This document shows, piece by piece, positions 4,261 through 60,216 of a DNA stretch of 64,000 nt; the stretch's first letter is position 1, and the number at the start of each line of letters is the position of its first letter. The DNA comes from Candidatus Sungiibacteriota bacterium (GTDB lineage Bacteria > Patescibacteriota > Minisyncoccia > Sungbacterales > SURF-37). Location: the NCBI GenBank assembly GCA_016186145.1, contig JACPMF010000009.1, forward strand, positions 17,505 to 81,504, given 5' to 3'. The translations under genes and the position numbers were made by a program. Below the pieces are notes generated by a model. That model was not told where the DNA came from and did no database searches. It saw only the letters and a program-made list of their open reading frames with translations.

Positions 4261-6679
<2,419 letters not shown>

Positions 6680-6713
6680 TTATCCGCATGAAGCGAAGCG
6701 ATCTGCTTCTAAA

Positions 6714-11217: not shown

Positions 11218-11436
11218 AGAATTTTTAAAAAATTTACGGATAAATAAAATTATAAACCTGTTGACCTTAATACCTCCCTAGTATACCCCTGTACAGCAAA
11301 CCAAAGCAAAGAGCCAGTTATCCACACCCGTTCGCTAACGCTCCACCAGCGAATGACGAATCCTTTACGAATTTACGAATAATAACGGGCTCCAATTCGT
11401 ATATTCGCGACTGATTCGCAATTCGTTGATATTTAC

Positions 11437-12645: not shown

Positions 12646-12844
12646 ATGAATTTCCTTTTTGTCTTTATTTCCTCACTGCGAGCTTCTTCTAAAATTTTTC
12701 ATTACGGAGATGCAAATACAAATTAAGGAGCCGGCGAGTAACATAAGAAAAATTTGCTTACTTCAAATTTTTCTTAATGATGTTACGAAGCCGACGACGC
12801 AAATTTGTTTGTATCGGAGTTGAACAAATTTTAGAAGAAGCGAG

Positions 12845-13909
12845 CTACCTTTTCATCAACAAACTTAGCTCCTGCGGATTCAAGGAATAAATAAGAGCCG
12901 TCTCAACCGTTATTTCTCCTCTCCGGACAAGATCGACAAGGGAACGATTCAGTGAAACCATGCCTTCCCCGGAACTCGTCTCAATCACGATATCAATCTC
13001 ATGGGCCTTATTCTCCCTGATAAGGTTTCGTATTGCGGGATTTGCAATCATAACTTCAGCGGCAGGAATAAGCCCGCCGGAGGCTCTCGGCAAGAGCCGC
13101 TGGGAAACGATACCGATAAGAGAGCCCGCGAGCTGAGCGCGAATCTGGTCCTGCTGAGCTGATGGGAACGTATCAATGATACGATCAATGGTCTGCGCGG
13201 CATTGTTGGTATGGAGACTGGAAAGAATAAGGTGCCCGGTTTCTGCCGCGGTCACCGCGGTCGCCATCGTTTCACCGTCTCTCATCTCGCCAACCATAGC
13301 TACATCCACATCTTCTCGGAACATGGAACGAAGCGCCCGATGGAAACTTGCGGTATCAATACCCACTTCCCGTTGGTCAATAATCGATCGATCTGACGCA
13401 AAAAGATACTCAATAGGGTCTTCAACAGTAATAATATGCTCGGATCGGGAATGATTAATATAATCAATGAGCGCAGCAAGAGTTGTCGTCTTTCCATGCC
13501 CCGTCGGCCCTACTACCAAAATAAATCCCTGCTGATGACTTACTAAATCAAGAAGCACCGTCGGAAGATTCAGCTCCTCAACGGTACGGATTGCGGTCGG
13601 AATAAGCCGCATCGCACAGCCGACAAAACCCCGCTGGAGAAAAATGTTCACCCGAAAACGGCCTTTATCTTTATATGCGTAAGAGAAGTCAAGCTCCTTT
13701 TCTCCCAAAAACTTTGCGTGCTGATCTTTGGGGAGCAGCTGAAAAACAAACTCTTGCGCAAGCTCCGGGGTTACGAGTGGAAATTTAACAAGCTCGATAA
13801 GGCCCCCGTCAACTCTCAATGTCGGCCGCCTTCCGACAGCAATATGCAGGTCCGACGCGCCCTGCTTGAATACCGCCTGAATTAATTCATCAAAAAAATC
13901 TTGTTGCAT
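12845..13909 (-). CDS. pilT: twitching-motility retraction ATPase
   Basis: Walker A GPTGHGKTTT, Asp box, His box, ~350 aa as for PilT/PilU. Confidence 0.85.
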   Translation of the reverse strand: MQQDFFDELIQAVFKQGASDLHIAVGRRPTLRVDGGLIELVKFPLVTPELAQEFVFQLLPKDQHAKFLGEKELDFSYAYKDKGRFRVNIFLQRGFVGCAMRLIPTAIRTVEELNLPTVLLDLVSHQQGFILVVGPTGHGKTTTLAALIDYINHSRSEHIITVEDPIEYLFASDRSIIDQREVGIDTASFHRALRSMFREDVDVAMVGEMRDGETMATAVTAAETGHLILSSLHTNNAAQTIDRIIDTFPSAQQDQIRAQLAGSLIGIVSQRLLPRASGGLIPAAEVMIANPAIRNLIRENKAHEIDIVIETSSGEGMVSLNRSLVDLVRRGEITVETALIYSLNPQELSLLMKR

Positions 13910-13913
13910 GGTA

Positions 13914-14036
13914 TATAATGCTAATCTACGAATGAAATGCGAATGCCGCTAATTATTAGCATGACATATTCCAGTACTACGCTCGCCCGCTATTCGCGGC
14001 ATTCGCATATTATTTGCATAATTCGCATTATGCTTA
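13914..14036. promoter_or_regulatory. 123-bp leader/promoter repeat, copy 1 (immediately upstream of pilT)
   Basis: Identical to 16239-16361. Contains the IR gcgaatgccgc...gcggcattcgc and the hairpin gcataattcgcattatgc. Confidence 0.6.
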
Positions 14037-14510
14037 TGGGCTTGCCGTATTCTCTCCTGCCGATTTGCCGGAGACTGAATCGGTCTCGAGCCAATAACGA
14101 ATAATATATGTCGTCCCGTCTGCTGACCGATAACGATACTGATAGTTACCTTGATCCAGCGGATCATGAGGCGTCTGGGCTATGGCATTCTCTCCGGTCA
14201 GTGCGAGAGAAACGGCGTCAGATCCGCTCAACACTACCTCGCTTGCCGCTGTCGGATAGATCCCCCGATTATTCGCATAAAGGGCAAAAGCGTTTTGCAA
14301 GGTTTTTATATGTTGTTCCCGCGTCGCATCCCGCGACTTTGCCCGCGTGCTTTGAAAAAGCACCAACGCCCCTGAAAGGAGCATTCCTGCAATGGCAACT
14401 ACGGTCAAAAGTTCAATGATTGTAAAACCGGAAGGCGGGGATCCAAGAAATTTAAAGCGGTCATTCGCCAATCCTTTTTTCTTACTTTCTTTTCTTCTCA
14501 ATTTCTCCAT
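14034..14510 (-). CDS. type IV pilin-like protein (prepilin, SG|FTIIELL)
   Basis: Long basic leader, then G|FTIIELLTVVAIAGMLL. Confidence 0.6.
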   Translation of the reverse strand: MEKLRRKESKKKGLANDRFKFLGSPPSGFTIIELLTVVAIAGMLLSGALVLFQSTRAKSRDATREQHIKTLQNAFALYANNRGIYPTAASEVVLSGSDAVSLALTGENAIAQTPHDPLDQGNYQYRYRSADGTTYIIRYWLETDSVSGKSAGENTASP

Positions 14511-14515
14511 ATTGA

Positions 14516-16234
14516 TTATACCACTTCCAACAACTCCTTCATCCCCACAACACCTTTCAACGCTTTGTAAAAACCGTCCTGACGGAGCGTAATCATGCCT
14601 TGTTTCTTAGCCTCTTCGGCGAGTTTAAATTCTGTCGGCCCGGAAAGAATAATTTTCTCGAGCTGCGGCGTCATTTCAAGCGCTTCAAAAACGCCTATCC
14701 TCCCCTTGGTCCCCATCGGGCAAAAAGAAGAGACCTCGCCTTCGTAGAGTGGCCCGGTCATGAGCTTTTCAAGCTCGCGGCGAGCGGACTCCGGCATTTC
14801 GGCAAGCTCGTCCCCAATCAGCTCTTTGGCGCGCCCCTCCAATTTAACTTCTTTTTTTGAATCAGGACACAGTGTCCGTACCAGGCGCTGGGCAACCGCC
14901 AAAATAAGCGTTGACGGAATCAAAAACGGTTCCACGCCCAAATCAACCAAGCGCGGGATAACGCCGACGGCGTTATTCGTGTGGAGAGTTGAAAGCACCA
15001 GATGGCCCGTGAGCGCCGCGTGAATCGCAAGCTGAGCAGTTTCCCGATCCCGTATCTCGCCAACCATAATAATATCGGGGTCCTGGCGAAGAATCTGGCG
15101 AAGCCCGGAAGAAAAATCATATCCTATCTCCGGACGCACCTGGGACTGATTTACCCCGGATATATAGTACTCGACCGGATCTTCCAAACTTACGATGTTC
15201 ACACCCTCCTTATTCAAAATGTTAAGAATTGCATAGAGTGTCGATGATTTTCCTGAACCGGTGGGGCCGGTAAGCAGCACCAAACCGAACGGTTTTCGTA
15301 TACTCCGCTCGACAACTTCAAGATTCCGCCCGTCGATACCAAGCTCCGGGAGAGTTTTAATGCCGACCGCCGGATCAAGAATACGAATCGCCGCCTTTTC
15401 ACCGTACTGCGCAGGGAATGTCGCAACGCGAAAGTCAATCTCCCGATCAAGCACCCGCGCATGAAACCTACCGTCTTGCGGAATACGAGTCTCGTCTATT
15501 TTCATATTCGTCATGATTTTGATACGAGAAATGATGGCGCTCTGTACCGCAGAAGGCAACACCAAGGTTGTATGCAAAACGCCGTCAACCCGGAAACGAA
15601 CCCTCACCTGCCGCGGTTCCGGCTCAATATGAATATCAGACGCCTTTCCTTCAACGGCATGACGCAATATAACACCGACCATTTTTGTGATTGGCGCCTC
15701 TTCGGCCATTTTCTCAAGTTCTGCTGCGCGCGGAGGACGACCCACCACATCAACCTCAAGTTCTTTTTCAAATTCGGTCAAAGACCGGGTAACTTCGCCG
15801 CCGAGCGTTTTGTATTCCGTAAGTACGGCCTTAAGATCGCCCGGCGTAATGATGAAAATTTTAAAAGGGATGTTCAGCCGCGTTGCAATAAACTTGAGTG
15901 CCTCTTGCGCATTCACGTCGTCAGGGTTGACCATTCCAATCTCAAGCGACCCGTCCCCGCTTTTCTCAATAGGAATAAACTTGTAAAACTTTGCCGATTC
16001 TTCCGGAATATTCCGCAGAATCTCGAACTCGACTTTTCCTCCCTCGAGGAAACGAGCCGGAATGCCCAAAAGCTCTGATTTTGCCAAAGCGACATCCCGC
16101 TCCGGAATGCCATGCTGATAAAAAATGTCTTCAAGCGGCCGACCGGTTGATTTTGCCTCCCGTCGCATTCCTGAGGCCGCTTCTTGCGTCAAGACCCCTT
16201 TTTGAGCGAGAACATCAGCAATTGATTTAGCCAT
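14516..16234 (-). CDS. pilB: type IV pilus assembly ATPase (GspE family)
   Basis: 572 aa: N1/N2 domains, Walker A GPTGSGKS, Asp/His boxes, tetracysteine motif C..C...C..C. Confidence 0.85.
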   Translation of the reverse strand: MAKSIADVLAQKGVLTQEAASGMRREAKSTGRPLEDIFYQHGIPERDVALAKSELLGIPARFLEGGKVEFEILRNIPEESAKFYKFIPIEKSGDGSLEIGMVNPDDVNAQEALKFIATRLNIPFKIFIITPGDLKAVLTEYKTLGGEVTRSLTEFEKELEVDVVGRPPRAAELEKMAEEAPITKMVGVILRHAVEGKASDIHIEPEPRQVRVRFRVDGVLHTTLVLPSAVQSAIISRIKIMTNMKIDETRIPQDGRFHARVLDREIDFRVATFPAQYGEKAAIRILDPAVGIKTLPELGIDGRNLEVVERSIRKPFGLVLLTGPTGSGKSSTLYAILNILNKEGVNIVSLEDPVEYYISGVNQSQVRPEIGYDFSSGLRQILRQDPDIIMVGEIRDRETAQLAIHAALTGHLVLSTLHTNNAVGVIPRLVDLGVEPFLIPSTLILAVAQRLVRTLCPDSKKEVKLEGRAKELIGDELAEMPESARRELEKLMTGPLYEGEVSSFCPMGTKGRIGVFEALEMTPQLEKIILSGPTEFKLAEEAKKQGMITLRQDGFYKALKGVVGMKELLEVV

Positions 16235-16238
16235 GATG

Positions 16239-16361
16239 TATAATGCTAATCTACGAATGAAATGCGAATGCCGCTAATTATTAGCATGACATATTCCAGT
16301 ACTACGCTCGCCCGCTATTCGCGGCATTCGCATATTATTTGCATAATTCGCATTATGCTTA
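16239..16361. promoter_or_regulatory. 123-bp leader/promoter repeat, copy 2 (immediately upstream of pilB)
   Basis: 100% identical by eye to copy 1 at 13914-14036. Confidence 0.6.
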
Positions 16362-16649
16362 AAACGGCGCGAACGGATTCTTCCGGCCGGGCACCGTGCT
16401 TGTTTTTGTCGAAGTGCCGGTTCCAAACGTCTGAAGAGGACTGAAAAGAGACCGGAAGAATGGATCGGTAAAGATACTCAAGTCCGGCTTAAGAGATTTG
16501 ATCTGCCGATAACGGGAAAGCAGCTCTGACCGGGTCCCCGCAGGCGCCTCAACGGTTTCTGCCTGGGATCCAAAAAAATACTGATAGAGAAAATACCCGG
16601 TAAGAACCAGTGCTACGACCAAAACTATGAGAAAAATTGTTTGCCGCAT
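16359..16649 (-). CDS. small membrane protein (T4P locus)
   Basis: N-terminal TM helix, 96 aa, between the PilO-like gene and pilB. Confidence 0.4.
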   Translation of the reverse strand: MRQTIFLIVLVVALVLTGYFLYQYFFGSQAETVEAPAGTRSELLSRYRQIKSLKPDLSIFTDPFFRSLFSPLQTFGTGTSTKTSTVPGRKNPFAPF

Positions 16650-16835
16650 GCGAATTTTATTTACGAGCTTTAGCGAATAACCATAAAATTCAGCACCCTG
16701 TTAAATAATTTCGCCGGAGGCGAAATTCCTCTGCCTAATAAAATCAGAGATTTTATTAGGCAGAGGATTTAACAGGGTAAAAGTTTGGCAGCTAAATTTT
16801 GTTCGGCTTCGTCTCCAAAATTTAGGCCAAGCCGT
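16650..16835. repeat. composite 3'-UTR repeat, copy A (conserved hairpin + palindromic core ccctgttaaat...atttaacaggg)
   Basis: Flanks ~85% identical to 58246-58303 / 58113-58141; the core palindrome is different but self-complementary. Confidence 0.55.
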
Positions 16836-17390
16836 TTACCTTGAATAGTACGTCGCTGCGTTCAAAGAGAACTCAAGCGGGCCCTCTCTTGCATCTTGCT
16901 GCCTGGTACCGAAAGAAATGTCCGCCACATCAACAATGCGCACCGTTTTTTCAAGATCCCGGAGGAACGCGCCGAATGACTCGTAACTGCCAAGCATCTT
17001 TAACGAGACGTCAACCGGAATTACTTGCCGCTCTGTGGGAAGTTTAAGCTGGGACGTGGTCGGCTTCTCTTGAGAAACAAAATCTATGCTCCGCAAGAAC
17101 ATGCCGTGTCGCTTGGCAAGCGCCTCGATATCTCGGACAAACTGCGCGCTTCCAAGTCCTCGCGGAACCATGGCAGAAAGTTTATTAAGGTCAGTCTGCG
17201 AAATAGAATTATACTGTCCCATCAGTTCGTCTCGAACCCCGGCAATATCCTGCAATTCGTCGTTTAAAGCAGTAAACTCGGCAATCTCGACTTGAAGGTC
17301 CGTCACTTTTTGCCATGCAGGAAAAACGCCGGAAAAAAAGACGACAACAGAGATGAAAAGAAAGATGATGGAGAAAACAAAACGAGTCAT
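16836..17390 (-). CDS. PilO-like pilus assembly protein
   Basis: N-terminal TM, coiled-coil, ~180 aa; position between the PilN-like gene and pilB. Confidence 0.5.
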   Translation of the reverse strand: MTRFVFSIIFLFISVVVFFSGVFPAWQKVTDLQVEIAEFTALNDELQDIAGVRDELMGQYNSISQTDLNKLSAMVPRGLGSAQFVRDIEALAKRHGMFLRSIDFVSQEKPTTSQLKLPTERQVIPVDVSLKMLGSYESFGAFLRDLEKTVRIVDVADISFGTRQQDAREGPLEFSLNAATYYSR

Positions 17391-18007: not shown

Positions 18008-18114
18008 AGATAGAGTTAGAGGCGGATAAATACGGATAGCTACGCGGACCCATGCGGATCCGCATTAATCCGCGTTGTCATCTGCATAAATCCGCTTCTA
18101 TCATCTTTTTATTT

Positions 18115-30242: not shown

Positions 30243-30391
30243 CACCCAGCACATAAATTTACAGTCGTCGTTTAGGGTATTTCAAGGTTATTTCATCAGC
30301 CCCGTGATTAAAATTATCCGACGGATGTAAATTTATGTGCTGGGTGAAGGTTTTGTAACTAAAATTTCATCGCCTGCGGCTCGAAATTTTA
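30243..30391. repeat. composite 3'-UTR repeat, copy C2 (palindromic core cacccagcacataaatttaca...tgtaaatttatgtgctgggtg + conserved hairpin)
   Basis: Same flanks as copies A and B (hairpin ctaaaatttc...gaaattttag, ttacaaaacc); different self-complementary core; directly after the dcd stop. Confidence 0.5.
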
Positions 30392-31069
30392 GACAAAGCC
30401 CTTCACCTCCCAATCTTTATGCATCTGCGGAATCATCATGTGCGGATTCCATGACTTTTTAACTTCTTCTATCTCTTGGGACAACTGATATTTCCCGCCT
30501 TCCCCAACATAATCCGGCGCTGTCTTCAACGGCTCGACTTCATAAAAAACCATCTGGCCGATTCTCCGGCCAACAACAAGCGGTATGGTAAAATATTGAG
30601 AATTATTGGTAACCTCCATAGTCCAGCGATTGAAATAACCGATATCGCCCCATCCGGCATCTTTGCAAACCTCGACAAAATTCCTGCCAAGCGAAGACCG
30701 GGCATACATTTTGCCGACGACCTTATGCCGGCCGCCGATGAATTCGAGCGTGTGAGCAAGGACGGTCTCCCCAGGCCTTAATAAAATCACTTTTTCGTCG
30801 GGTTTAATGTTTTTGAGCCCAACTCCGGTCCGGCTTGACACACCTTCAGCAAGTTCTGCCTGATACGGACCTGACCAAACGCGCTTGGTGGACTCTTCGT
30901 CGTAAAGATTGTGCAAAGTGGCCCCCCCATCAGGATGTTTTTCTTTCCAATACCAATCGCCGAGCGTAACATCATAGCTCGTTGTCTTAAGTTTCCGCCC
31001 GTCAAAAGGATCAACAACTATCGTCCCTCCTTTAATGTGCCGTAAAATTGCGTCGCGAGATAACAACAT
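30389..31069 (-). CDS. dcd: dCTP deaminase family protein
   Basis: MLLSRDAILRHIKGGTIVVDPF...SYDVTLG N-terminus and G.GDIGY...T.E..N core; longer (226 aa) than canonical Dcd. Confidence 0.7.
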   Translation of the reverse strand: MLLSRDAILRHIKGGTIVVDPFDGRKLKTTSYDVTLGDWYWKEKHPDGGATLHNLYDEESTKRVWSGPYQAELAEGVSSRTGVGLKNIKPDEKVILLRPGETVLAHTLEFIGGRHKVVGKMYARSSLGRNFVEVCKDAGWGDIGYFNRWTMEVTNNSQYFTIPLVVGRRIGQMVFYEVEPLKTAPDYVGEGGKYQLSQEIEEVKKSWNPHMMIPQMHKDWEVKGFV

Positions 31070-49350: not shown

Positions 49351-50109
49351 ATGGCACTCGAATTTGAACTCAAAAAACTTGGATTTTCCGACAAGGAAGC
49401 GAAAGTCTACCTTGCCCTCCTGGAACTCGGCGCCTCACCGGTACAGCCGGTTTCGGAGAAAGCCGGGGTAAATCGCGCAACAACCTATGTGGTACTGGAA
49501 ACCCTCCGAAGCCGCGGGGCCGCCAGTACTGTCGAGAAAGAAGGCAAAACAATGTTTATCGCGGAAAGCCCGCGCACTCTTTTGCGGCTCTTCCGCGCGC
49601 AGGAGCAGGAATTAAAAGAGAAGCAAGAGGCATTCAAAAAAGTTCTCCCGGAACTTGAAGCGGTCTTCAACATCGCGACCGGAAGGCCAAAAGTAAAATT
49701 CTTTGAGGGGCCCGAGGGAGTCCGGGCAGTCCGAGAAGACATTCTGCAATCGGGAGCAAAAATCCTTTATGACATCTATTCCCTTGAATACGTCAACCAG
49801 ATTATGTCTCTTTTTTCCGAAGAGGAAGTAAATGAATATGTAAAAAGACAACAGGAAGCCGGAATGACCATAAAATCCCTCTATACCAGCGAGACCGGCC
49901 CATCTACCGAATTCAAACTCACCGGCGAGCGCAAATTCTTGCCAAAGGAAAAATTTCCTATTGCTGGCGACATTTTAATCTACGAAGATCGGGTCTCCCT
50001 TACCACGCTTCGCGGCAGAATCATGAGTGTAATCATAGAGAGTAAAGAGATCGCCGACACCATGCGGCTTGTGTTTGATCTTGCTTGGCTTGGCGCTGAC
50101 CATATTTAA
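49351..50109 (+). CDS. TrmB-family transcriptional regulator
   Basis: N-terminal wHTH (EAKVYLALLELGASPVQPVSEKAGVNRATTYVVLETL..RG), TrmB-like C-terminal domain. TATAAT 12 nt before the ATG (near-leaderless). Confidence 0.65.
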   Translation: MALEFELKKLGFSDKEAKVYLALLELGASPVQPVSEKAGVNRATTYVVLETLRSRGAASTVEKEGKTMFIAESPRTLLRLFRAQEQELKEKQEAFKKVLPELEAVFNIATGRPKVKFFEGPEGVRAVREDILQSGAKILYDIYSLEYVNQIMSLFSEEEVNEYVKRQQEAGMTIKSLYTSETGPSTEFKLTGERKFLPKEKFPIAGDILIYEDRVSLTTLRGRIMSVIIESKEIADTMRLVFDLAWLGADHI

Positions 50110-50581
50110 ACTACCAAAGCACTACTAAATAAGTTCGGCCCGGAGCGCAGATTTTCGCGCCCCGGGCCATTTTGCGTTTCTACGAACATATCAGAACCGC
50201 AGACCGCTTCGATCAGAGATTTTTCCAAAAGAACGAACCCAATCTCGAGCATCAAAATCAGCCCTTACTTGGATTCGCCCATCGGACACCTCCTTTCGCT
50301 CTTGATACGACATGCCTAGGGTTCGTAGGTGTAGGGCCGGTCCGCCAAGGTGCAGCGGACCAAGCCCCATCCCTTAGGCATCGCCCACGATCGCCACCCC
50401 CTCTCAAGCCAGAATTATCTCCATTATAGCTGATTGACAACTTCTTGTCAATGTATCTTAACAAAACATCTTTGCTTTGCAGTCACTCGTATCACATACT
50501 GCGCTGACATTTCCTTTTGGCAAAAAATTGGCTTAAAATATCAGTTTTTTGAGCCATGTCCATAGAATTTGTTAAAAGGGC

Positions 50582-50610
50582 TTGACAAAGTTTTTAGATA
50601 GGTATATAAT
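50582..50610 (+). promoter_or_regulatory. consensus sigma70-type promoter (TTGACA - 17 bp - TATAAT)
   Basis: Exact match to both hexamers with a 17-bp spacer: cTTGACAaagtttttagataggtaTATAATtac. Confidence 0.6.
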
Positions 50611-50617
50611 TACTTTA

Positions 50618-51330
50618 TAACAGTACCTTGCCAGGAAATTATTCCTGCCAAGTGGCGTGCGGCTAAAGGATTACAAGCCGAGCCCTTGCGGACATTATGG
50701 AACCCGGGAATAAACAACATTATGTATCCGCCACAGGCGGATCAGTCCCGATCCGTTCCAAGAGTGCCGATTTTAGTCCTTTACTCGCATCATTCTTGGC
50801 AGGAATAGCTTATCACCCGCTCTCTTGAGCCATGGGAACACTAGCCCCGCACCAATTTTGCCTTATCAAACCGTAGGTTTTGTAAGTAAAAAGGAGGGGC
50901 AAAACACTTGAGCGAAGTGCGTGTGCCGGAACCCCGCAGTAGAGTAAGGCTCACTACGGGGCAAGTAGGCACGGATTCTGAAATAAGGGCGACCTGCCCC
51001 GTAGGGAACGCGAAGCGTTATCCTTCGGGGAGCACTTCGCCACAGAGTGGTAATGCAAAATTGGTGCTGGGGTATTTTCAAAATAGGCCCGATTTTAATA
51101 AAGGGCAGGCCCTTCGAGGACCAATGGCTCAAAAGAACGGGTGATTAGTTCAACTTTTAAAGAAAGGGTAGAGGTAACCCCCGATGAAGTTGCGGATAAT
51201 TCGCGGCAAGGAGAAACGGATTCCGATCCGTCTTCCGTTGCCGCCGGTTGGACGCCCGCATAGCACGCCGAAGGGCGCGCGTGGGTATAATCGTTCTGAA
51301 ACGCGGCGCCTGGAACGCGCCGCAAAGGAG
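50618..51330 (+). ncRNA. candidate structured non-coding RNA / very long leader downstream of the consensus promoter
   Basis: No convincing ORF for ~700 nt. Many local and long-range complementarities (e.g. cctgccaag/cttggcagg 140 nt apart; atccgccacaggcggat). Class not recognised. Confidence 0.3.
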
Positions 51331-51337
51331 GGACGTG

Positions 51338-51631
51338 ATGAGTGATCAGAAGGTGGTGATCGAGGTGTTCGCATGTGGCGCCTGTCATGCCGTGAAAGGC
51401 ATGGCGAGCACGATGTTCAACACCACGATCGACGGCCGGCGGCTGATCTTGTGCCGCCGCGACGCGGCGTCGGCGAGGACGAATGGCCTGAAGGTCTTTC
51501 CCCTCTCGGCCACGCTCGCGCGCGACGCGCGACAGGCCGCGGCTCGCGAGGCCTCAAAGGACTTCTGGGCCGACTTCGGTCGCCGAAAGACCGAAAAGGC
51601 CCTGCGGCGACCGGCGATCCGGATCACGTAG
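51338..51631 (+). CDS. hypothetical protein (very GC-rich)
   Basis: AAAGGAGGG RBS 5 nt before the ATG; 97 aa; composition is foreign to the rest of the window. Confidence 0.35.
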   Translation: MSDQKVVIEVFACGACHAVKGMASTMFNTTIDGRRLILCRRDAASARTNGLKVFPLSATLARDARQAAAREASKDFWADFGRRKTEKALRRPAIRIT

Positions 51632-52117
51632 CGCCCGCTCTCGGTTAACGCGGATATCGCGGGCAGGAAACCCGCGGTGGGACGCGAAGCGTCTCCGAGA
51701 GCAAGAGTCCATCCCGCAAACCAGCGGGATTCCCGAGGCGGCCCTGGGTGCGACGTCTCCCAGGCAAACCGAATGCTCTGCCGCCACAGAGCGTACCCGG
51801 GAAACCATTTGCCGCGAATTGGGGCGCGGCATTGGGAAATTGGAGCCGCTGGCGAGGCGGGTAAGCGCGAGGGCATTTCGCCCCGCGACCGAGACCAATG
51901 AAGGATTCTCATCTCCCCTTCACGCAAGAGGATGGCGTGGGCAACGCGTGCCGCCCGCCGCCCCAACCGGGGCCTGCGGAGCGAGTACGGCCAAAGGGGC
52001 GAGCCAGCGGAAAGCCGCGGCCGCCCCATCCTCCGTTCTTCCGAGTTTCTTATTCCAATGTTCTTGAGAACATTGGAATAAAGATTCGGAAGAGCGAAAG
52101 CTCAAAGTTCTTTTGAC

Positions 52118-52243
52118 ATGAATCCCGTTAGAGATATGAAACTTAAATCTTTTTATGCGAAACTAACAGCAATTGTTAGTTCATAAGTTGCCAGATAGTC
52201 AAGATGTGGAAACCTTAGGTTTCCTATCTCTAACGGGATGAAG
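52118..52243. mobile_element. MITE-like hairpin element, copy E (ATGAAtcccgttagagata ... tatctctaacgggATGAAg)
   Basis: Perfect 14-bp termini, ATGAA direct repeat; the right-hand ATGAA supplies the ATG of the ORF at 52238. Confidence 0.55.
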
Positions 52244-52477
52244 AGGGCAAAACCCGTCTTCAGGTTCGTGGGTGAACCACGGCCGGGCGTCCGGGCCCAG
52301 CTCGAGATCGCGCTCGCGGTCCAGTCGTTCTTCTTCTCGGTCACCGAGAAGGGGCTGGATCGAGCGGCAATCGAGCAGGAGCTCGGAAAGGAGCTCTCCG
52401 ACCTCAAGGCGCAGATGCGCGTCCTCGAGGTGGAAGTCTCCGGCCCTGCGTGGTTTGCCGAACTCTTCCGCTCGTAA
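52238..52477 (+). CDS. hypothetical small protein (GC-rich)
   Basis: 79 aa; start codon within the target duplication of element E. Confidence 0.3.
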   Translation: MKRAKPVFRFVGEPRPGVRAQLEIALAVQSFFFSVTEKGLDRAAIEQELGKELSDLKAQMRVLEVEVSGPAWFAELFRS

Positions 52478-53048
52478 GGGGAAGAGGCGGACCTAGTCGG
52501 TGCCTGCGGTGTCCGACGATAAATCCCGCGAAATCGGGATCCGCCTCTGGCGGAAAACAGGCTAGGAGAGCCATAGAAACGACAAAACTCTCCGCTGGTC
52601 GAGTGAATTCTGATTCTCGACCGCTCTCCAAAGTTTTCAAATCATTCTGAAAGTTTTGGTGGGACAAAACTAGAGGCATAAACCCATACAAAGGAGGAAT
52701 CCATGGAATGTTTGATTTGCGGGGACAAACCCCTGCAGCTGCCCTTGCCCAGACTGCGGCCAGCCGTATCGTGAATGCGGCGACTGCGGGCAAGCGTATT
52801 GCGGTTACCCCGACTACGGGTGCAACTGCTAATAAACGGAGGGGGGACATTCCTTTCCGTGAAGCGGACGGCGAGAATATCCGTCCGCTGTTCTTCCGAG
52901 TCCATCTCATCTATTCTCAAATTCTTAAGAATTTGAGAATGAAGATTGGTTCAGAAGAGCAACAGACACTCTTCCAACAAAACGGTTGAAAAACCTCAAA
53001 AGTATAGTATAATAATGACGTCTTTGCGTGAGACGACTTATTAAAATT

Positions 53049-53099: not shown

Positions 53100-53171
53100 G
53101 CCCCCGTAGTTCAATGGACAGAACAGGGGCGTTCTAAGCCCTTGATGTGGGTTCGATTCCTACCGGGGGCG
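53100..53171 (+). tRNA. tRNA-Arg (TCT)
   Basis: Manual fold: acceptor gcccccg/cgggggc, D-stem gttc/gaac, anticodon loop gtTCTaa, T-arm gtggg-ttcgatt-cctac. Confidence 0.8.
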
Positions 53172-55640: not shown

Positions 55641-55751
55641 ACCCATCAGCGAATTACGAATCCAACGCGAATATACGAATTTATTTCACACGGCGAAACA
55701 CATTCGTACATTCGTAAAAGATTCGTTATTCGTTGATAGGGCTCAGCGAAT

Positions 55752-56126
55752 ATGGATAAAGAAAAAATCTTAGAAGCCGTCGAAAAAATGTCCGTACTTG
55801 AGCTTTCCGAACTCGTAAAAGCGCTTGAGGAAAAATTCGGCGTATCTGCCGCAGTACCAATGATGGCGGGTGCTGCACCGGCAGCGGCAGAAGAGAGTGG
55901 CGCGAAAGAAGAAAAAACATCTTTTGCTGTTGAACTCAAAGATGCTGGCGGGCAAAAAATTCAGGTTATCAAGGCGCTGCGAGAACTTGTCGGCCTCGGC
56001 CTCAAAGAGGCGAAGGATTTGACAGATGCCGCGCCGAAGGTGGTAAAAGATGGAGTTGACAAAGCAACGGCAGAAGAAATGAAGAAGAAACTGGAGGAAG
56101 CAGGCGCGACGGTGGAAATTAAATAG
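55752..56126 (+). CDS. rplL: 50S ribosomal protein L7/L12
   Basis: N-terminal dimerisation helix, Ala/Glu-rich hinge, conserved C-terminal domain ...[10 protein letters not shown]....P..VK......A....[11 protein letters not shown]. Confidence 0.92.
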
Positions 56127-56480
56127 CGCTTCCCGTATGCCGGGATTTTTCAGCTTGCGGTGTAAACTGATACTCGGTATCCATAAAAATTTCCAGACTC
56201 CGATACAAACAAATTTGCGTCGCCCGTTTCACAAAATTTTCGAGAAAATTTGAAGTAAGCAAATTTTCTCTATTTTGTTTCGCGGGCTCCTTAATTTGTA
56301 GTTGTATCTTCGTAATGGAAATTTTTATGGACACCTCGCATATTTTATTCCACCTCCATCAATAAAAAATTCCGGCATACGGCTCGCGCGCCATACACAC
56401 ATACCGCTGCACCGCTATAAATGAATAAAAAGGAAGTGGATAAGAAAAAAGCCGCCCTCGGGCGGCTTTTTAAAATAATC

Positions 56481-58303: not shown

Positions 58304-59038
58304 TTATAAGTGATACATTCCTTTTTCCTCGTCTCGGATAACCCTCCCTTTTTCAAGCGTGATTACTCTTCGTCCCAAATGGTCAACAATGTGTTTATCG
58401 TGCGTCGCAAGAACAACCGTCCTCCCCAACTCATTTATTCTCTCAAGAAGGCGGACAATCTCCCATGTATTCACCGGATCGAGATTGCCGGTTGGTTCGT
58501 CAGCCATAATAACATCCGGTTGGTTCACCAAGGCGCGCGCAATAGCAACGCGCTGGCGCTCCCCGCCGGAGAGCTCGTGCGGAAAGTTATGCATCTTATC
58601 AAGAAGGCCCACTATCTCCAAAACCTCCGGCACGCTTTCGTTGATCTCCTCATCGGGACAACCGGCCGCCTCCAGAGCAAAAGATACGTTTTCGTAAGCG
58701 GTTTTTCCGGGAAGAAGTCGATAGTCTTGAAAAATAGCGCCTATCTTCCTCCTGATCCGCGGAAGTTCGCGCCCGGACAAAGCCGTTATCTCTTCATTGT
58801 CGAGAAAAATCCTTCCTTCGGAGGGCGTATCCTCGGCAATCAAAAGTTTCAACAATGTTGATTTACCGGCGCCGGAGTGACCAACAATGGAAACAAATTC
58901 TTCCGGCTGGATCCTGATAGTAACGCCCAGAAGCGCGGCCGAGACCTCATTATCGGCGCCATGTGAAAATTCAAGCGCTTGTGTCTGCGGCCTGCTCCTC
59001 ACAGGATAAACTTTTGAAACATTATCGAAGAATATCAT
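58304..59038 (-). CDS. ftsE: cell-division ATP-binding protein FtsE
   Basis: Walker [10 protein letters not shown], signature [15 protein letters not shown], Walker [12 protein letters not shown]. Confidence 0.88.
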
Positions 59039-59108
59039 GTAATATCAGCGAACCACGAATCGGTTGTGAATTTAGGAATAATCAATTCGCTCATTCGTAG
59101 CAAATTCG

Positions 59109-60216
59109 CTATTCGTTGATTTCCGCTTCAATAAACTCGTCCAACTCCCCCCCAAGCACCTTATCAACCTGGGATGTCTCGATTCCGGTCCGATGATCTT
59201 TTACCAACTGATATGGGTGAATAACGTAGGAACGGATTTGGCTGCCCCACTCAATCGCGGCAATCTCTCCTTTTAGCTTAGCCGCTTCCTGCTCTTGGGC
59301 TTTTACTTTCGCCCGATAAAGCTTTGCCCGAAGCATCTCAAGCGCGATCTCTCGATTCCGTTCTTGCGACCTCTCCGATTGTACCGCAACCTGGGTGCCG
59401 CTCGGAAGATGCGTAATACGCACGGCGGTTTCCCGTTTTTGCACATTCTGGCCGCCCGGACCGGAAGATCGGAAAAAATCTGTTTTTAATTCATCCGGTT
59501 TCAATTCTACTTCTTCCGGCCTAACCAGTTCAGGCATAACTTCGACCAGCGCAAAAGACGTGTGGCGAAGCGAACGCGCTGAAAATGGAGAAATGCGCAC
59601 CAGCCGATGTACTCCGGTTTCTCTTTTAAGCCAACCGTAACTGTAAGCGCCGCTCATCAACACGGAAACATTTTTAATTCCCCACCCGGCCGGTCCGGAC
59701 ATTTCTCCCCAATGTTCATGCAAAACCTTCGTTTTGAACTTCTTCCGCTCGGCAAATCTCATATACATCCGTAAAAGCATTGCCGCCCAGTCTTCAGCAT
59801 CCTTCCCGCCTGCCCCGGAAAAAATTGAAAGAACCGCATTGCCCGCATCATACGGACCGTTAAAACGCTTTTCTGCCTCAAAAGAGCGCCACTCGCGTTC
59901 GAGAGAAAAAAGCCGCGCGCCTATCTCTTCTTGAAACGAAGAATCTCCGCCCCCGACTTCAAAAAGCTCTTTCAGCGTATCAACTTCCGAGAAAAAACGC
60001 TCGCACTCTCCCGCTTTTCGTTTTAAAACTGCAAGTTCTTCGGATTTTTTTTGCGCGTACTCGCGATTCTTCCAAAAATCCGGCTGCGCCATTTCTCCTT
60101 CAACTTCCGAAATCTGTCTCTTTATTCCGGCAATATCAAAGACGGTCCGCCATATGGCGGACTTTATCTGCTAACGCCGCAATCCGGTCGCGAAGTTCAT
60201 CCATACTTTTTATCAT
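59109..60216 (-). CDS. prfB: peptide chain release factor 2, with programmed +1 frameshift (shift site CTT TGA near 60136-60141)
   Basis: GGQ and SPF motifs. The main frame lacks the N-terminal ~25 aa. A short upstream frame (MIKSMDELRDRIAALADKVRHMADRL-stop) ends at CTTTGAt, and the +1 frame continues in-frame with the main ORF. Confidence 0.8.

Follow-up and report, generated by a model that had tools for sequence, protein, structure and literature searches.

We analyzed a duplicated 123-nucleotide (nt) sequence in a stretch of 64,000 nt from a Candidatus Sungiibacteriota contig (hereafter the window), in which one copy lies directly ahead of pilT and the other directly ahead of pilB, the genes encoding two pilus ATPases. 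Both sequences are probably recent copies of a generic, portable, promoter-like palindromic cassette that was copied locally, and not a regulator of the pil genes. This cassette is one member of an extensive box-array family in the genomes of Patescibacteria, the candidate phyla radiation (CPR), and the ~45-nt module that forms its gene-facing arm recurs at a sharply defined distance before the start codons of unrelated genes.

The duplicated spacer before pilB and pilT

Pairwise alignment of positions 13914-14036 and 16239-16361 gave an unbroken run of 123 identical nucleotides (123/123), which confirms the duplication ahead of pilB and pilT in the original prediction. The repeat search of the window joined 13907-14036 and 16232-16361 into one 130-nt family at 98% identity; beyond the identical run, two mismatches fall within the final 6 nt ahead of each ATG, and the two regions do not align any further. 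A chance origin of this identity within 64 kb is excluded. Read on the minus strand, the run opens with the TAA stop codon of the upstream gene and closes 4 nt short of the ATG of pilT (13909) or pilB (16234), so that the element constitutes the entire spacer. Copy 1 (13914..14036, minus strand) fills the spacer between the prepilin stop codon (TAA, 14034-14036) and pilT, and copy 2 (16239..16361, minus strand) fills that between the stop codon of an open reading frame (ORF) of 96 amino acids (aa; stop codon at 16359-16361) and pilB. Outside the run, one flank is TAA and the opposite one TACC or CATC, with no direct repeat or convincing target-site duplication visible.

Each copy carries the 11-bp inverted repeat GCGAATGCCGC/GCGGCATTCGC (13939-13949/13996-14006 and 16264-16274/16321-16331), whose arms are separated by 46 nt, and a small hairpin, GCATAAT-GCGA-ATTATGC, at 14016-14033 and 16341-16358. 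The coding strand of the element also contains TGCTAATAAT, which lies mostly in the centre and ends at 13952 within the gene-proximal module, and neither the pilT nor the pilB ATG is preceded by a GGAG-like Shine-Dalgarno sequence. All four of these features had been described correctly. The short ORFs that were said to lie wholly inside the repeat start or end in it but run beyond it; they are not conserved and were dropped as genes.

Both arms of both copies were matched by an nhmmer profile built from 115 modules of other genomes, and no other significant match was obtained in the 64 kb. In copy 1, the gene-proximal module (13911..13957, minus strand), which reads ATTAGC-ggc-ATTCGC-atttc-ATTCG-tag-ATTAGC-AT-TAT, faces pilT and scored 46.8 bits (E = 1e-13); it is 90–95% identical to modules at many of the fetched loci. 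The distal module (13988..14036, plus strand; 30.9 bits, E = 9e-9) is inverted and more degenerate, and points antisense toward the 3′ end of the prepilin gene. In regards to copy 2, the gene-proximal module (16235..16282, minus strand; 46.8 bits, E = 1e-13) faces pilB, and the inverted distal module (16313..16361, plus strand; 30.9 bits) adjoins the stop codon of the 96-aa ORF. The centre (13958..13987 in copy 1 and 16283-16312 in copy 2, minus strand) has the same sequence in both copies and is peculiar to this strain. Complementarity between the arms, although imperfect, extends over ~40 nt, which makes them terminal inverted repeats, and the whole element folds as a single long imperfect hairpin (-41.5 kcal/mol, z -2.6). 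The distance from the end of the module to the ATG is 8 nt at both pilB and pilT, and the mode of the family is 7–8 nt.

The orthologous spacers of relatives hold other sequences. In the relative whose PilB is 94% identical (L149), the spacer between the 96-aa ORF and pilB contains a different box palindrome. In two relatives with PilT proteins of 95% and 94% identity (L156 and L157), a 78-nt spacer of another type, found also in L152, lies between the orthologous flanks ggcaagtccaTAA and ATGccacaagatttt. The spacer before pilT is merely 20 nt long in L153, and L150 contains yet other palindromes. The element is therefore absent from the pilB and pilT spacers of the 94–95% relatives, where L149, L156, and L157 carry other elements at the orthologous sites, and from those of more distant syntenic loci. 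The identity proposed for comparison in the original prediction is not maintained in relatives, and because these carry other spacers, both copies were installed after the split from the 94–95% relatives, replacing whole older spacers.

When the full 123 nt were searched with blastn against all fetched loci, the proximal ~40 nt alone recurred and the ~30-nt centre matched nothing; the centres differ among family members. Since the two copies agree throughout a centre that is found in this strain alone, the identity indicates a recent copy of the complete unit and not constraint. Of the two explanations offered originally, gene conversion or strong constraint, recent copying or conversion stands, whereas constraint alone does not account for a centre that other members do not conserve. 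The copying could have proceeded by local transposition, ectopic conversion, or illegitimate recombination, and the cassette would spread intact to adjacent spacers within its gene cluster. A parallel is found in the spc operon of a metagenome contig (L092, 1-2273; L24-L5-S14-S8-L6), where near-identical doublets of ~100 nt with the same asymmetric arms occupy four of the five spacers, before L24, S14, S8, and L6. None of the spc genes of this contig has a Shine-Dalgarno sequence. At the S18 gene the arm types are swapped between two Falkowbacteria genomes, which indicates that such exchanges recur in the family. The cis-regulation shared by pilB and pilT in this strain seems to be incidental to local copying.

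The module family and its placement before genes

The inner-stem pattern (GCGAATGCCGC, 30–60 nt, GCGGCATTCGC) was found in species-representative genomes in 5 copies on 4 contigs of one Falkowbacteria metagenome-assembled genome (MAG), as well as in one Liptonbacteria MAG and one other uncultured CPR MAG; in these CPR matches the sequence beyond the stem is conserved too. Most of the 28 genome matches were non-CPR, did not have conserved flanks, and were judged to be chance hairpins. The proximal-arm pattern (GCGGCATTCGC, N3-6, ATTCGYRRATTNGCRT) recurs in metagenomes of groundwater, peat, and sediment, where at least 120 stretches contain it. Both window copies fit the module search pattern ATTnGC-GGC-ATTCGC-N4/5-ATTCG-YRR-ATTnGC-AT-YA. 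The ~45-nt module consists of four or five ATTnGC boxes with a spacing of 8–11 nt and ends in GCAT-YA; GCAT is followed by Y (0.89 bit), then A (1.48 bit), then T.

Inverted partner boxes upstream of the module, counted as exact boxes in 111 modules, numbered one or none in 56 cases, two in 12, and three or more in 43. Some of the 56 partnerless modules probably have degenerate partner boxes. In the paired modules the inverted partner is 15–45 nt away, which gives a palindromic doublet like the window element. At the family level, singlets and inverted doublets of one short module thus occur together, as is characteristic of elements of the REP/REPIN (repetitive extragenic palindrome) type. 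No published description of the cassette family was found in the searchable literature, which is not proof of absence; the literature matches to the motif strings were PCR primers.

The modules are tightly coupled to gene starts. In 54 of 117 non-identical modules, a long ORF begins 1–14 nt past GCAT, with a sharp peak at 6–10 nt. An ORF starting with ATG was found 1–14 nt past the module in 42% of cases and at 4.4% of random positions in the same loci, and the corresponding values for 6–10 nt were 31% and 1.6% (one ORF caller was used). Among the non-seed modules recovered by nhmmer, 17 of 73 were coupled to a gene start. The ATG lies either 1 nt or 6–14 nt past GCAT and never at 2–5 nt, and the ATGs served by modules in other genomes have no Shine-Dalgarno sequence.

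The downstream genes represent 76 Pfam families, chiefly of translation and the cell envelope. They include EF-Tu, EF-G, IF-2, LepA, L31, L3, S9, AlaRS, TrpRS, Pth, and SmpB, as well as NrdD, FtsW, MreB, UvrD, PilM, and response regulators; S18, S12, L35, L17, S21, GroES, ClpB, and trigger factor were assigned by eye. Since these genes are unrelated to one another, the family is not pilus-specific. The original prediction held that many copies unrelated to pilus genes would mark the sequence as a generic repeat, and such copies were found at the level of the family, for the gene-proximal ~45 nt. The proposal of a device specific to pilB and pilT that couples the extension and retraction motors is not supported, since the module recurs before unrelated housekeeping genes on at least 120 metagenome contigs and in several CPR MAGs. 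The broader proposal of a shared promoter/operator or RNA leader survives in part: a common non-coding element does occupy the promoter or leader position and a promoter is plausible, but the pilus specificity is lost.

At a groES locus (L130), a doublet ending 9 nt ahead of the groES ATG is itself preceded by a CIRCE-like operator. This cassette looks as if it had been inserted between an old heat-shock promoter/operator and groES.

Promoter, RNA hairpin, or mobile element

According to the promoter reading, the gene-facing module would act as a portable promoter from which transcription starts at the conserved A two nucleotides past GCAT. The predicted transcription starts are 13916 for pilT and 16241 for pilB (minus strand), with a 7-nt leader (AUAUACC for pilT). 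Alternatively, a -10 element CATTAT (TTCGCA-17-CATTAT) would place the start at the A of the ATG and give a truly leaderless mRNA. The repeated boxes would probably be contact sites for RNA polymerase or a further factor. By supplying a transcription start at the ATG, the cassette would allow each gene to be expressed separately, since these organisms use few Shine-Dalgarno sites. RNA read through the inverted partner arm could fold into a long hairpin that insulates or processes transcripts.

Several genomic contexts are consistent with a promoter. Some modules directly follow a tRNA gene or stand far from any upstream gene, and one of those following a tRNA has no exact-box inverted partner. 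In nine doublets, a divergent gene begins 6–17 nt from the other arm. The HrcA operator CIRCE was found 16–25 nt downstream of one module, with clpB divergent on the other arm, and another module ends 7 nt ahead of the mature 5′ end of tRNA-Ile. The modules without an exact-box partner, about half of the total, keep the same spacing to ATGs, and where the ATG is 1 nt away, the conserved A is the A of the ATG. Taken together, these contexts and the pattern of ATG distances argue for a start at the conserved A, with Y at -1, A at +1, and YRRATT at -10. In the same CPR loci, genes without a module show a canonical TGnTATAAT that peaks 6 nt before the ATG, and Shine-Dalgarno signals are rare; leaderless starts are thus in use in these genomes.

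A number of results weigh against the promoter reading. Both the start site and the promoter activity are ones that we infer. A promoter scan (-35/-10 matches of at least 9/12, spacer of 16–18 nt) gave no site in either copy, and the best manual sigma-70 reading, TTCGCA-17-CATTAT, reaches 8/12. In 36% of modules, the -11 A expected at the key second base of the -10-like YRRATT is replaced by G, and CATYAT is too near the ATG for a leaderless start in 15 of ~54 gene-proximal modules. In co-oriented contexts every distal arm points antisense into the 3′ end of a gene, and a solo module is conserved in two genomes behind tig (trigger factor), antisense to its 3′ end (L069 1656-1686; L111 ~867-898, minus orientation). 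Because such antisense-pointing modules exist, a promoter-only model is insufficient. The unit that propagates is the whole asymmetric doublet and not the single module, and ribosomal-protein operons do not usually have a promoter ahead of each of their genes. These two observations agree with a role at the RNA level or with a selfish element. Viral contigs gave no pattern matches.

The poor sigma-70 match and the G at the -11 A position in 36% of modules make it likely that a factor reads the boxes. More tentatively, the box module may represent a CPR-wide class of promoter or operator, in which a DNA-binding factor or an unusual sigma specificity recognises the boxes and sets RNA polymerase at a fixed distance of a few nucleotides before starts that have no Shine-Dalgarno sequence; the palindromic form would then be a self-propagating expression cassette that splits ancestral operons, including those of ribosomal proteins, into near-leaderless units. 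We regard this extension as possible but doubtful.

A serious rival to the promoter reading, or a second function beside it, is the role of an intercistronic RNA hairpin. The arms of a polycistronic mRNA would pair and bring the stop codon and the next ATG to the base of the stem, and the hairpin would be cut, for example by RNase III, or would act as a terminator, stabiliser, or coupling element, so that monocistronic, near-leaderless mRNAs result. Of 43 doublets, 16 have a co-oriented gene whose end falls at the distal arm or close to it, with about ten of these ends within 0–6 nt, and an ATG 6–10 nt past the proximal arm, as in the window. The doublets occupy four of the five spacers of the ribosomal-protein operon, and the entire doublet spreads as a unit. 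All 50 of the doublets folded (50/50) are far more stable than shuffled sequences, with a median z of -8, and the window element has a z of -2.6. Correia elements are substrates of RNase III (PMC2649163). The pairing itself, however, does not appear to be what is conserved. In 41 doublets, arm-to-arm complementarity was 88% in the boxes, 58% in the spacers, and 93% in the terminal ATYAT, and the free position of the box was Watson-Crick paired in 41–45% of doublets. Since complementarity is high in the boxes and much lower in the spacers and at the free position, selection keeps the boxes and not the helix. Neither spacers nor free position co-vary for pairing, and no compensatory changes that preserve pairing were found among the doublets. 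No intrinsic terminator (a GC-rich hairpin with a T run) was present inside the element, and Rfam gave no match to the window element at the gathering threshold, the best match having E = 1.4 when the search was relaxed to E 10. Moreover, about half of the modules do without an exact-box partner at an unchanged ATG distance, and the divergent-gene and CIRCE arrangements fit a promoter at the DNA level. We consider the RNA element unlikely as the whole explanation, at odds of roughly one in four or five in our judgement.

The same features were weighed against three further explanations. A selfish non-autonomous mobile element of the MITE (miniature inverted-repeat transposable element) or REPIN type, with no host function, would be found near start codons because short spacers are the sole tolerated sites in compact genomes. 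The imperfect terminal inverted repeats of ~40 nt, the identical copies 2.3 kb apart, the orthologous sites that are filled or differently occupied, the arms that are homogeneous within a genome and swapped by type at S18 between the two Falkowbacteria genomes, and the REP/REPIN-like mixture of singlets and inverted doublets all agree with this explanation. Neither copy shows a visible target-site duplication, however, and the module-ATG distance is sharply peaked and oriented, at 10–20-fold over random. Orthologous copies keep intact boxes before the same genes across genomes (L31, LepA, IF-2, S18, and ClpB), and a common core of ~32 nt persists from one candidate phylum to another, in several of them, which indicates selection on the sequence; a purely selfish element is improbable. 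An operator or RNA leader that evolved specifically to co-regulate the extension and retraction ATPases would explain why the sole two cassettes of this type (type A) in the 64-kb window precede pilB and pilT, and identical upstream DNA must give both genes the same cis-regulation in this strain. This explanation is very improbable, and is largely refuted by the absence of the element from the orthologous spacers of the 94–95% and more distant syntenic relatives together with the generic distribution of a family that precedes dozens of unrelated genes; no RNA family match and no covariation speak for it either. Lastly, MAG contigs can mis-join at repeats, so that the duplication might be a collapsed or chimeric repeat of the assembly. 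Each copy has unique flanks, though, the gene order is shared with four relatives, and in two short-read assemblies made independently for the same strain the contigs break inside the element, 32–34 nt before the pilT ATG. Contig breaks of this kind are the behaviour of a true repeat in de Bruijn assembly, which indicates that the repeat is genuine, and an artefact is scarcely credible.

Other candidates were dropped. A DNA-uptake sequence does not agree with a box that is merely 1.3-fold enriched across the window, the motif does not fit a sigma-54 or extracytoplasmic function (ECF) promoter, and the boxes of Fur, LexA, and Spo0A-like regulators bear some resemblance but have the wrong spacing.

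The promoter-like cassette was compared with known systems. The promoters of leaderless mRNAs in Actinobacteria and Deinococcus have no Shine-Dalgarno sequence and place a promoter element a few nucleotides upstream of the ATG; the CPR module differs in that it has no canonical -10 at the canonical distance, and its predicted product mostly has a 5–9-nt leader and not a 5′-terminal AUG. The early mRNA of phage T7 contains long and imperfect RNase III hairpins between the stop codon and the next start codon of a polycistronic unit, but these sites are not dispersed box arrays and the downstream T7 genes retain Shine-Dalgarno sequences. TIGR-Tas arrays have units of ~36 nt and are considered unrelated to the cassette family. 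Like REP, REPIN, and BIME (bacterial interspersed mosaic element) sequences, the CPR elements are short extragenic modules that occur as singlets or inverted hairpin doublets between operon genes and are homogeneous within a genome, whereas REPs lie chiefly at 3′ ends and bear no constant relation to start codons, and the CPR module is longer and internally repetitive. No gene for a RAYT transposase, the enzyme associated with REP sequences, was seen, although no search for one was made. The Correia elements of Neisseria (CREE/NEMIS) are described as palindromic intergenic sequences of ~100–150 nt with long inverted repeats around a core, which are dispersed and strain-polymorphic and can create promoters at one or both ends and read-through RNA hairpins (PMC2649163). 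The window cassette is likewise an intergenic palindrome of similar size and build that is polymorphic between strains; it differs in having no visible TA target duplication, in arms that are arrays of 6-nt boxes (ATTnGC) and not a unique 26-bp repeat, in the occurrence of these arms singly at a fixed 6–10 nt from ATGs without a Shine-Dalgarno sequence, and in its CPR host. Putative mobile promoters are near-identical upstream regions that precede non-homologous genes within genomes and across taxa (PMC3575422). The window pair and the L092 operon fit this definition exactly, with near-identical upstream sequences and unrelated adjacent coding DNA, but that work is a similarity catalogue of complete genomes that does not cover the box architecture, the leaderless-type coupling, or the CPR.

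Genomic surroundings and significance

The order of the genes on the minus strand is pilM, two pilN/O-like genes, the 96-aa ORF, copy 2, pilB, the prepilin gene, copy 1, pilT, and pilC. The product of pilT (12845..13909, minus strand), downstream of copy 1, is a PilT/PilU family ATPase of 354 aa (TIGR01420, 445 bits against a cut-off of 319). The gene downstream of copy 2 (14516..16234, minus strand) encodes a PilB/GspE-like assembly ATPase of 572 aa with MshEN and T2SSE domains; its top NCBIfam match was type_IV_pilB, with a score under the family cut-off. These scores and domains uphold the original assignments of both genes. Both ATPases are 100% identical to proteins encoded on a 110-kb contig of a Candidatus Sungbacteria MAG. 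The prepilin-type gene (14034..14510, minus strand) lies between pilB and pilT, and copy 1 opens with its stop codon. The conserved 96-aa ORF (16359..16649, minus strand) precedes pilB and terminates in the stop codon with which copy 2 begins; syntenic genes of 95–97 aa were found at its position in relatives.

The prepilin gene has its own TGGTATAAT 4 nt ahead of the ATG. It is one of several window genes in which an ATG without a Shine-Dalgarno sequence is preceded by an extended -10 at 3–7 nt, namely TGGTATAAT-caat-ATG, TGTAGAAT-agt-ATG, and TGGTATAAT-aacgcca-ATG (14511-14530, the start of 30389-31069, and the start at 49351). Such canonical motifs near ATGs suggest widespread leaderless expression in this organism.

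Other box palindromes were observed in the spacers of the window and of its relatives. Type B palindromes form a sister subfamily in the same superfamily as the type A cassette. One of them (CGAAT x4 / ATTCG x4, with spacings of 7, 11, and 8) lies at 11350..11425 on the minus strand, just past the pilC stop codon, a second (55650..55751, plus strand) reaches as far as the ATG with which the gene at 55752 starts, and a third array (59056..59119, minus strand) fills the spacer ahead of the gene starting at 59038. Clusters of at least 4 type B boxes occurred 3 times in the window and 0.035 times in shuffled sequences. Palindromes of GCGGAT/ATCCGC boxes, one base off GCGAAT and spaced by ~10–12 nt, were found at 18017-18100, where they occupy the pilM-pilN spacer and end 14 nt before the ATG, and at 6618-6710, where they adjoin the ATG (6617-6619) of a minus-strand gene. 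Their arms match at the boxes and not at the spacers, like those of the main family. In Sungbacteria relatives, the prepilin-pilT spacer contains palindromic arrays of still other boxes, TAGAA/TTCTA (7-nt period) and ACAAC/GTTGT (L150 3764-3849; L152 6827-6931; L156 724-801). Palindromes made of box arrays may be a general spacer design in the Sungbacteria clade.

Further repeats of the window have a different build. A spacer module of the form ...GGTGCTGAATTTTATRGTTAYTCGCTA...CTCGTAAATAAAATTCGC-ATG precedes three genes (16650-16838; 30099-30170/30334-30405; 58113-58180/58235-58306) and occurs together with a 72-nt repeat (family D5) located past the upstream gene; the same motif occurs before pilB in L153. 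At 16690-16790 this GGTGCTGAATTTTATRGTTAYTCGCTA/CTCGTAAATAAAATTCGC module is linked to a nested hairpin of great stability (-59 kcal/mol). A 157-nt inverted repeat of 71% identity links the pilT-pilC spacer (12677-12833) to 56184-56340 and constitutes another dispersed spacer family. Between 20900 and 25500, four tandem units of ~1056 nt (repeat families D1-D9) carry small paralogous genes, each with conserved DNA upstream that contains a strong AAGGAGGT Shine-Dalgarno sequence, unlike most genes of the window. The region 50000-53000 is a GC-rich island (55%, compared with 46% on average over the window), in which the GC skew is reversed and local folding is more stable than anywhere else in the window; it adjoins a tRNA (53100-53171) and may be foreign DNA.

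In regards to pilus biology, pilB and pilT of this strain share a generic promoter-like cassette and not a dedicated extension/retraction switch. Their pairing is apparently the result of ordinary local spread, and the family behind it is well defined and apparently undescribed. Intergenic cassettes that are swapped between very close strains and spread along operons affect operon prediction, gene-start calling, and MAG assembly, the last because the repeats interrupt contigs. Experimental knowledge of the starts of transcription and translation in CPR/Patescibacteria is minimal, and the module provides a precise motif of ~45 nt for which a start nucleotide is predicted. Its conservation extends over several candidate phyla, and it stands before EF-Tu, ribosomal-protein, chaperone, and pilus genes. 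If the more tentative reading of a CPR-wide promoter or operator class is true, the cassette would be a mobile, lineage-specific solution for gene expression in reduced genomes that are poor in Shine-Dalgarno sequences.

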